Virus record (IMG/VR): IMGVR_UViG_2896601577_000003
Length of the DNA stretch: 37,046 bases
Direction: 5' to 3' (one strand)
From: a virus
Taxonomy: Duplodnaviria > Heunggongvirae > Uroviricota > Caudoviricetes
Shown: positions 31,140 to 33,366 of the stretch, piece by piece
Position numbering within the stretch: position 1 is the first letter of the stretch
How the letters are laid out: each line of letters starts with the position of its first letter
The notes under the pieces: generated by a model
What the model saw: only the letters and a program-made list of their open reading frames with translations
What the model was told of the DNA's origin: nothing
Database searches by the model: none
Made by a program: the position numbers and the translations under genes

Positions 31140-31745
31140 TTACTCCTTGTCCATTGCGTACAGCCCATTAACCAGAGCAAACTGTGGCACCCCGTCCGCG
31201 ATGAAAGTCGCATTAACTCCGCAGGCTTCGCGGATAGCGGGTGCCACAATCTCCGCCCCTCCACCGACAACCATCACCCGCCCGTAACCCGAAAAACCCG
31301 CCAGCGCGCGGATCACGCGTTGTTTCAGTGTTTCTTCCTTTTCACGAATTACCGCCATAAGGCTGGCGTAATGCGCGTCATTGTGGATGTGCTGGCGCAG
31401 CCAGGCTTCATCATGGCGATGTTCGATAATGGTATTGGCGATGTGGTGACTGGTGCGCATACCGTTAGTGGCCATCACCGACAGTACGGCATCGGCCATC
31501 AGAGAAACGCCCACGTGTGGATCGCAAAACACCTGGCTGATACCTGCCAGTTGCCCCTGAACCTTTGCCACATCCAGCGTGGTTCCGCCCAAATCCACAA
31601 TCAGCAGGGATTCAAACGGACTCATGTCAGCCAGTGCCTTAAAGCCAGCCGGAATGGATTCAGGCATAACCCGTACGTTACGGATAGTGAATGCTTCGCC
31701 GTTCTGGTACTCCACCGGGCGCATGACGTTCGCTTTTTTGCGGTT
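31140..31745 (-). pseudogene. ParM/StbA-like actin-fold ATPase, C-terminal ~200 codons only (5' end removed at the IS911 junction)
   Basis: …SLLIVDLGGTTLDVAKVQGQLAGISQVFCDPHVGVSLMADAV… and …GYGRVMVVGGGAEIVAPAI…VNGLYAM match the ParM phosphate-2 and C-terminal motifs. The first 5 codons of ORF 31140..31760 are encoded by the IS911 terminal repeat. Confidence 0.7.
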
Positions 31746-32902
31746 TGAAGTGGTCAACAAAAACTGGCCACCGAGTTAGAGTTTTTCCAGTATCGATTTT
31801 CCGATTCGTTTGGGGTAACCCACCACCGGCATCCATTCGTTCTTCAGACTCCTGAAGAAGCGTTCCATTGGGCTGTTATCCCAGCAGTTTCCGCGCCGGC
31901 TCATACTCTGTCTGATCTGGTATCGCCACAATAACTGCCGGAACTGCCTGCTCGTATAATGACTGCCCTGATCGCTGTGGAACATCACCCCGCCGGGCTT
32001 ACCACGGGTTTCCCATGCCATTTCCAGCGCTTTCATGGTGAGCCTGCTGTCCGGCGAGAACGACATGGCCCAGCCCACTGGTTTTCTTGCGAACAGGTCG
32101 AGAACAACGGCGAGGTACGCCCAGCGCTTACCCGTCCAGATACAGGTCACATCACCGCACCACACCTGATTTGGCTCGGTCACGGCGAACTGCCTTTCAA
32201 GGTAGTTAGGGATAGCAACATGTTCATGACCACCACGTTTATACCGGTGAGTCGGCTGCTGACAGCTGACCAGCCCCAGCTCTTTCATGAGCCTGCCAGC
32301 AAGCCAGCGTCCCATCTGGTAGCCTCTCCGGGTTGCCATTGTGGCGATGCTTCTTGCTCCGGCCGAACCATGGCTGATGCCATGTAGCTCAAGTACCTGA
32401 CTGCGTAATACAGCCCGTCTGCCGTCTGGTTTTTCAGGACGGTTTTTCCAGTATCTGTAGCTGCTGCGATGAACCCCGAACACTTGGCAGAGTGTGACCA
32501 CAGGATAATGCGCTCTGAGTTTCCCGATTATCGAGAACAGTTCAGGGAGTCTGACATCAAGAGCGCGGTAGCCTTTTTTAATATTTCATTCTCCATTTCA
32601 ATGCGTTGTAGCTTTTTCCTCAGCTTACGTATTTCGATTTGTTCTGGTGTTATCGGAGAGGCTTTTGGTGTTTTGCCCTGACGCTCATCACGCAGTTGTT
32701 TGACCCATCTTGTCATTGTGGAAAGGCCAACATCCATAGCTTTGGCGGCATCTGCCACCGTGTATTTCTGGTCAACAACCAGTTGAGCGGATTCGCGTTT
32801 AAACTCTGCGCTAAAATTTCTTTTTTTCATTGGAGCACCTGTGTTGTTCTGAGGTGAGCATATCACCTCTGTTCAGGTGGCCAAATTCAGTGTGCCACTT
32901 CA
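31746..32902 (-). mobile_element. IS911-like IS3-family element with both termini but an internal deletion near the 3' end of orfB
   Basis: OrfA (32528..32866; [52 protein letters not shown]…) and OrfB (31776..32501) are recognisable. A6G slip motif at about 32574-32580 on the reverse strand. Terminal repeats begin TGAAGTGG… at both ends. Total about 1157 bp, shorter than the ~1.25 kb I recall for IS911. The flanking triplets (GTT / AAC) are not a direct repeat. Confidence 0.8.
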
Positions 32903-33167
32903 AACCGAAGAACACGGCGGTGCGGAGTCCGGAGAGTAACGGAATAGCAGAGAGCTTCGTGAAAACGATAAAGCGTGACTACATCAGTATCATGCCCAAA
33001 CCAGACGGGTTAACGGCAGCAAAGAACCTTGCAGAGGCGTTCGAGCATTATAACGAATGGCATCCGCATAGTGCGCTGGGTTATCGCTCGCCACGGGAAT
33101 ATCTGCGGCAGCGGGCTTGTAATGGGTTAAGTGATAACAGATGTCTGGAAATATAGGGGCAAATCCA
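32903..33167 (+). mobile_element. IS2 3'-terminal fragment (about 265 bp) abutting IS911
   Basis: Identical in content to 1464-1728 of the complete IS2 (InsD C-terminus …[28 protein letters not shown]… and right end GGGGCAAATCCA at 33167). Confidence 0.85.
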
Positions 33168-33366
33168 CTGCGGCACAGATCAGCTCGGAAAGTTCGTTAA
33201 GTGCATCCAGATCATCAGCGTAAAAAGCCACGTCATACAGACTTCGGATTGCTCTGGTCAATGAGTCACGGGCCGCACGTTCAGCATGAGCGCCTGATGC
33301 ACTTAAGCGAAAATAAAAACGCTCAAGTGCTTTGTTAATGAGAGTTTTATATTCTTTGCCCATCAC
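33168..33366 (-). pseudogene. Early-operon gene, 5' fragment truncated at the IS2 fragment
   Basis: ORF 33127..33366: MMGKEYKTLINKALERFYFRLSASGAHAERAARDSLTRAIRSLYDVAFYADDLDALNELSELICAAVD then an IS2-encoded tail. Confidence 0.4.

Follow-up and report, generated by a model that had tools for sequence, protein, structure and literature searches.

The P88-like prophage carried on a 37,046-nucleotide stretch of Shigella DNA (IMG/VR record IMGVR_UViG_2896601577_000003; this whole stretch is called the window, and all coordinates refer to it) contains no replication initiator. Where intact relatives hold their replication module, the early region of this prophage has a scar composed of a copy of the insertion sequence (IS) IS911 and the end of an IS2, set between a truncated parM gene and a truncated DUF4754 gene. 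The same scar is present in other strains of Shigella boydii, and a deletion driven by IS911 may have produced it.

The window matches the Shigella chromosome CP026867.1 at 100% across the 13.7 kb that could be compared, and the prophage lies between ihfA and btuC, the identical chromosomal site at which E. coli VG38-53E1 carries an intact prophage; the prophage of E. coli SE11 is also integrated next to btuC. Collinear similarity over the structural and early regions, at 95-99.8% across most of the window against phage P88_4B11 (NC_049391.1) and the VG38-53E1 prophage, places the element among the P88-like phages (Xuanwuvirus, Peduoviridae, relatives of P2). An earlier reading of this DNA made from the letters alone (the sequence-only reading) had called it P2-like, which is right as to kinship but not as to group, the prophage being P88-like and not P2 proper. 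The cos junction falls between 30085 and 30086, the positions to which the linear ends of P88_4B11 map. Gene order is the same in the intact P88-like elements used for comparison (P88, NC_026014; P88_4B11, NC_049391; Citrobacter phiSM; and the VG38-53E1 and SE11 prophages), running int-C-cox-DUF4761-orf-DUF4754 ... parM-parR-cargo-cos-portal. Of these, P88 can be induced and phiSM shows spontaneous activity (PMC6456863).

The replication module is missing from the prophage

The flanks that the window has kept on either side of the scar are 94-99.8% identical in DNA to these intact relatives, whereas everything between DUF4754 codon 65 and parM codon 119 is absent, a loss of 4.5-6.3 kb that includes the Phage_GPA replication endonuclease. 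Alignment puts 4,455 bp between the two breakpoints in VG38-53E1, which has the same integration site and is nearest in sequence on the right flank, 5,234 bp in P88_4B11, which is nearest on the left flank, and 6,322 bp in P88. These three elements and the SE11 prophage all have there a number of small early genes together with a replication endonuclease of 921-940 amino acids, which in P88_4B11 matches Pfam Phage_GPA (PF05840) with E = 7e-131 and phrog_91, annotated as 'nicking at origin of replication'.

The sequence-only reading had claimed that no gene A-like initiator was left, and the searches bear this out. When the gene-A proteins of relatives (940 and 921 amino acids) were compared by tblastn with the whole window, the best hit had E = 5.5 and no homologue was found, and six small early proteins of P88_4B11 likewise gave nothing significant in the window. 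Outside it, only chromosomal genes and two small open reading frames (ORFs) lie beyond int, and about 300 bp past the left end. Because the tblastn search of the window was empty and the flanking loci leave no room for such a gene, the prophage as a whole is without a replication initiator, none having been found elsewhere in it.

Anatomy of the scar

From left to right, the scar consists of the truncated parM on the minus strand, IS911, the end piece of IS2 and the truncated DUF4754 gene, again on the minus strand (Table 1). The parM gene has lost its first 354 bp, that is 118 of its 319 codons, and keeps codons 119-319; of its Pfam profiles, StbA_N is matched only at positions 119-157 and ParM_N in full. 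It abuts the right inverted repeat (IRR) of IS911 at 31745/31746. The bounds of IS911 were set twice, by alignment to a 1249-bp reference copy (E. coli O121, locus L005) and by alignment to P88_4B11, whose homology breaks off precisely at 31745 beside parM and restarts at 33168 on the DUF4754 side, and the terminal inverted repeats start with TGAAGTGG at both ends, identical to the reference copy. The IS2 piece is 100% identical to window positions 1464-1728, where the complete IS2 of ogr has its 3' end, and falls short of a complete element, which would span about 1.33 kb with both terminal repeats and a 5-bp duplication. Its right end abuts DUF4754 at 33167/33168. The remaining part of that gene matches the Pfam DUF4754 profile at positions 1-65 of 80, and its reading frame continues into IS2 to give a chimeric ORF of 78 amino acids that ends at 33127.

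With identities of 99.6-100% to reference IS copies and intact phages, we judge that this anatomy cannot be due to chance. The scar of IS911 and an IS2 fragment, with its truncated parM and truncated early gene, had already been described in the sequence-only reading, correctly to the base. Two side observations concern the ends of the elements. The ogr ORF (1688-1924) and the DUF4754 ORF (33127-33363), both cut by an IS2 right end, enter IS2 in the same frame and so share a C-terminal tail of 12 residues. At the junction of the IS911 IRR with the truncated parM, a consensus scan predicted no hybrid outward promoter.

The triplets flanking IS911 are GTT (31743-31745) and AAC (32903-32905), so that, with the true bounds of the element fixed, there is no 3-bp direct repeat around it. 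This agrees with the earlier claim that the two sides had not been contiguous before the insertion, and the relatives do have the two breakpoints 4.5-6.3 kb apart. The other complete IS copies in the window served as an internal control, and all of them (4/4) bear canonical target duplications (Table 1); another IS911 copy, in a sister strain (locus L023), is flanked by the 3-bp duplication AGA/AGA. In all, six IS copies or fragments lie within 37 kb.

As a separate observation, the pentamers flanking IS911 (31741-31745 and 32903-32907) are inverted complements of each other, CGGTT-IS911-AACCG, with AACCG reading outward at both ends. The chance expectation of such a pair is about 1 in 1000; it may be a coincidence or a target preference, for which we have no mechanism to offer. 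A minor and rather unlikely suggestion is that the AACCG repeats arise from a sequence-directed preference in end-targeting by IS911.

The scar is shared among S. boydii strains

Loci carrying the scar were found by exact-protein look-ups of the chimeric DUF4754-IS2 ORF, of the ORF spanning IS911 and the truncated parM, and of the integrase with the R273H substitution described below. The three junctions, each taken as a 50-mer (parM/IS911, IS911/IS2 and IS2/DUF4754), are identical in 18 assemblies; the other loci retrieved are cut by contig ends or, in one case (L036), lie in a scaffold with N-gaps. The accession CP000036.1 we take to be S. boydii Sb227. Carriers include S. boydii 600657, 602068 and ATCC 9210 (the last a strain name given in PMC6456863), and the first two come from different S. 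boydii clades (PMC7545283). Because three junctions are identical in 18 assemblies, their sequences indicate that the scar is one ancestral event, inherited vertically across S. boydii strains and not private to the strain of the window. Among 5,426 complete E. coli genomes, none has the parM/IS911, IS911/IS2 or IS2/DUF4754 junction in contiguous form.

Two candidates were examined and set aside. L036 was considered as an exception without the scar and rejected, its N-gaps falling at repeats as an assembly artefact. An IS911-IS2 pair on the pINV plasmid of enteroinvasive E. coli (L003) was rejected as an instance of the same scar, since the order of the elements differs and no junction is in common.

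A later deletion inside IS911

The IS911 of the window is 1157 bp long and differs from the 1249-bp reference by two mismatches and one 92-bp gap (reference positions 1088-1179), so that the comparison proposed in the sequence-only reading resulted in a single internal deletion. The gap lies between 10-bp direct repeats, GGTGGGTTAC, and because these stand at both ends of the deletion, the sequence points to slippage as its cause, with a crippled transposase as the outcome. The last 50 amino acids of OrfB are replaced by 12 unrelated residues; the A-AAA-AAG site for -1 frameshifting is intact, but the element lacks the full-length OrfAB of a copy of about 1250 bp, and it is probably a non-autonomous derivative.

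The 92-bp deletion occurs only in the strain of the window and in CP026866.1, while most scar-bearing strains hold a full-length IS911 at this place and four have instead a different IS inserted into the scar IS911. Sister strains have the scar but not the deletion junction, and the comparison therefore dates the 92-bp loss after the scar. Nor did any of the top-ranked E. coli matches listed contain the junction in one piece, which is weak negative evidence. Since most strains have a full-length IS911 at the scar, a competent IS911 with its transposase was present when the scar formed.

How the deletion may have arisen

At least three events are required to account for the scar, namely the insertion of IS2 into DUF4754, the insertion of IS911 into IS2 or parM, and the deletion itself. 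The anatomy of the scar, the identity of the DNA that is missing, the lack of a replication initiator and the common descent of the scar are seen directly; which insertion came first, and that a transposase took part, we infer. We favour, with moderate confidence, an adjacent deletion driven by transposase from a single IS911 copy in a Shigella P88-like prophage. IS2 would first have entered the small early gene DUF4754, and a full-length IS911 would then have inserted either into that IS2 (target AAC) or into parM (target GTT). The IS911 transposase would subsequently have linked one end of IS911 to a second site on the same molecule, with removal of the intervening DNA, that is, the left ~1.06 kb of IS2 and 4.5-5.2 kb of phage DNA. 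Gone with it are the end of DUF4754 (15 codons), five or six small genes of the early region, the gene-A-type rolling-circle replication endonuclease of 921-940 amino acids and the start of parM (118 codons). The IS911 that survived would have one old and one new flank, and hence no 3-bp duplication. IS911 is reported to transpose intramolecularly, according to work of the Chandler laboratory. Intermediates on this path would be recognizable by the junction of the left IS2 part with the IS911 IRR and its AAC duplication (GGGACTTGAAC+TGAAGTGGTCAAC), by that of the left inverted repeat (IRL) of IS911 with upstream parM and its GTT duplication (CCACTTCA+GTTGATGTTGGCC), or by that of the 3' part of DUF4754 with the IS2 left end and its CTGCG duplication (CCCCGCACTCTGCG+TAGACTGGCCCC).

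The locus has the features expected of an adjacent deletion, with an IS kept at the junction, no duplication and flanks collinear with an undeleted relative, and on VG38-53E1, P88_4B11 and P88 the breakpoints are collinear and in the same orientation. We prefer this reading because one IS911 insertion suffices and because the IS3 family offers a precedent: in the E. coli long-term evolution experiment, 14/14 duplication-less deletions associated with IS150 (IS3 family) lay beside a pre-existing single IS copy (PMC11708052). Deletions by IS3-family elements such as IS150, whether adjacent or by IS-IS recombination, likewise leave a single IS at the junction, no duplication, and truncated, collinear flanking genes; unlike the IS150 deletions, which were observed happening, the one described here reaches into a second IS (IS2) at one endpoint and is an old event that has become fixed in its lineage.

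Several points weigh against this preference. Homologous recombination between two direct IS911 repeats leaves an identical product, and with an IS density as high as six in 37 kb, two IS911 insertions within 5 kb are not far-fetched. The look-ups turned up no intermediate preceding the deletion: wherever the exact Int, the chimeric DUF4754 or the truncated ParM occurs at an informative locus, the scar is already in place. That the origin went together with gene A would follow only by analogy with P2, in which the origin is said to lie inside gene A and the A protein to act in cis (work of the Haggård-Ljungquist laboratory).

A quite possible, if less probable, origin is recombination of the RecA type between two direct IS911 copies, one in IS2/DUF4754 and one in parM, with the replication module looped out and a hybrid IS911 left behind. 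It would yield exactly the observed flanks, GTT from one copy and AAC from the other, and the observed orientation; it suits the very high IS load of the prophage, to which sister strains add further insertions into the scar IS911, and IS-IS recombination is a frequent cause of missing duplications (PMC11708052). Two independent IS911 insertions in the same orientation within ~5 kb would, however, have to precede it, and the look-ups gave no strain that carries one of the two insertions, or the pair. In the 5,426 complete E. coli genomes neither junction is present. The term adjacent deletion, which the sequence-only reading had used without reserve, is accordingly likely but not proven, given that recombination between IS911 copies equally leaves no duplication.

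We consider it very unlikely that the flanks derive from two different P88-like elements or loci which IS911 brought together through an inversion, a translocation or recombination between prophages, with the replication module perhaps elsewhere in the genome. The nearest relatives of the two sides do differ, parM being 99.8% identical to P88_4B11 and 94% to VG38-53E1, and the DUF4754 side 99.6% identical to VG38-53E1/SE11 and 97.7-98.3% to P88_4B11, and the inverted-complement pentamers CGGTT-IS911-AACCG may also be counted in favour of such a joining. The two flanks nonetheless follow the order and orientation found in one P88-like genome and occupy the ihfA-btuC site of the intact E. coli prophage, and mosaicism is family-wide (SE11, for example, is without parMR), which fits the different relatives of the flanks. 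That the ancestral phage never had a gene-A-type initiator here, an idea whose sole support is the absence of the gene, is refuted by genes cut mid-codon-series exactly at the IS ends on both sides and by the replication endonuclease that all relatives with annotation read carry between DUF4754 and the cos-proximal cargo, and we give it practically no credence.

Neighbouring genes of the early region

The genes on either side of the scar are listed in Table 1. The sequence-only reading had noted an ORF of 211 amino acids next to the cox-position gene; the ORF is there, but it is not a single gene, being a frameshift fusion of DUF4761 with a phrog_3800 gene, and it matches two PHROGs, phrog_2492 (residues 26-104) and phrog_3800 (residues 117-211). 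The exact fusion protein occurs in one assembly only in the collection, the 1-bp deletion that creates it being unique to this strain.

Table 1. Features of the scar, its neighbours and the other IS copies in the window
Feature	Position	Strand	Remarks
IS2 in ogr	402-1728		target duplication ACGGG
IS1 in FII	8339-9106		target duplication GAAGGACGG
IS1	16003-16769		target duplication ATTCAACCC, 9 bp
Ead/Ea22-like gene, 196 aa	30170..30760	-	intact; last gene before cos
parR-like gene, 103 aa	30824..31135	-	intact; Plasmid_stab_B; downstream of truncated parM, same arrangement in P88_4B11
5'-truncated parM	31140..31745	-	last 201 codons + stop; 99.8% to P88_4B11 parM from record position 35441 on
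IS911	31746..32902	-	IRR left, IRL right; both inverted repeats intact; 92-bp internal deletion; no target-site duplication
Surviving copy of 10-bp repeat GGTGGGTTAC at the 92-bp deletion junction	31815..31824	-	from the IS911 alignment
IS2 remnant	32903..33167	+	last 265 bp including right terminal repeat (...GGGGCAAATCCA); left ~1062 bp gone
3'-truncated DUF4754 gene	33168..33363	-	65/80 codons kept; aligned to P88_4B11 gp46 and SE11 homologue
211-aa ORF, DUF4761 fused to next gene	33375..34010	-	1-bp deletion, CCC to CC, at ~33703
Cox-position gene, 92 aa	34025..34303	-	intact; 100% amino acid identity to SE11; phrog_575 (Cox-like excisionase and repressor), E = 1e-7
C-type immunity repressor, 102 aa	34400..34708	+	intact; 100% amino acid identity to SE11; Pfam HTH_3
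IS629	34758-36065		1308 bp; target duplication CGAA (4 bp)

The C and Cox proteins are 100% identical to those of intact E. coli relatives, whereas the functions for replication, late activation, tail formation, packaging and integration are all broken. On this ground the remnant might be thought to have been kept across S. boydii for use, and not just because it is unable to leave, as a fixed locus of superinfection immunity against P88-like phages acting through C; we regard this as an unlikely suggestion. A further observation concerns parM and parR: phages of the P88-like group integrate into the chromosome, and they carry a plasmid-type parM/parR pair (StbA/ParM and Plasmid_stab_B) adjoining gene A (window 30824-31745; P88_4B11 35087-36362). 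The parM segment is present at a coverage of at least 80% in 1,279 of the 5,426 complete E. coli genomes, and our literature search found no paper on a role of parM/parR in a P2-like phage.

Further decay of the prophage

Beyond the scar, IS2 cuts ogr at about codon 64 of 86 and IS1 cuts FII towards its 3' end, two genes that are uninterrupted in the intact relatives; terminase, portal and cargo genes are frameshifted in addition. The terminase large subunit and portal (27476-29680), of 583 and 348 amino acids in relatives, are here spread over ORFs of 260, 186, 168 and 240 amino acids, by frameshifts independent of any IS. IS629 separates C from int; it stands 3 nt upstream of the int start codon (ATG), where it replaces the native upstream region of int and severs it from the C operon; among the loci examined, this insertion occurs only in this strain. 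Int itself carries R273H (CGC to CAC, 36885-36887), which turns the second catalytic Arg of the HxLRHT box into His (AVHALHHTF). All 14 Shigella loci in which int is complete share the substitution, and the SE11 integrase of E. coli has Arg at this position; R273H is probably an old inactivating mutation, earlier than much of the IS damage.

The sequence-only reading had named ogr, FII and int as disrupted, which holds for the first two; int is uninterrupted, but has IS629 upstream and the R273H change. Its verdict that the prophage is almost certainly cryptic is justified by the interruption of ogr and FII, the fragmentation of terminase and portal and the lack of an initiator.

Two variable segments were noted in passing. 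Between gene D and ogr there is a cargo insert of 3.5 kb with 33% GC (1966-5430; ORFs 2060-4918 and 4855-5178, minus strand), which in VG38-53E1 encodes one protein of 1039 amino acids, annotated by PGAP as 'MFS transporter' in some genomes and as 'hypothetical' in others. A 1-bp deletion near 4868 splits it here into 107 and 952 amino acids, with no match in Pfam, PADLOC or PHROG. The insert is present at a coverage of at least 80% in only 5/5,426 complete E. coli genomes, and it may be a defence-type moron of unknown family. The 952-aa ORF, the only large one in the window left without an assignment, was considered as a hidden replication protein and rejected, having no match in these three collections and corresponding in position to one 1039-aa gene in the E. 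coli relative. The invertible tail-fibre segment (13730-16002) is opposite in orientation to that of P88_4B11, and the second IS1 stands beside it.

A grounded Shigella prophage

The grounding of Shigella prophages by IS elements has been reviewed with the defective Shiga toxin (Stx) prophage of S. dysenteriae among its cited cases (PMC6379469). There, as here, IS insertion and rearrangement block replication, excision or assembly, and the remnant is inherited vertically; unlike the S. dysenteriae Stx prophage, which is lambdoid, the present one belongs to a P2-like family and has lost a different module. It is textbook IS-driven prophage grounding, an event of a familiar type in a genome that is public and annotated, and part of ordinary Shigella genome decay; it implies no new biology and adds little beyond annotation, but it pinpoints why this prophage cannot replicate and offers a worked example of the process. 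For S. boydii, the scar is a clean, datable marker, formed by three exact junctions and followed by strain-specific decay, and it may be of use in typing the lineages of this group.

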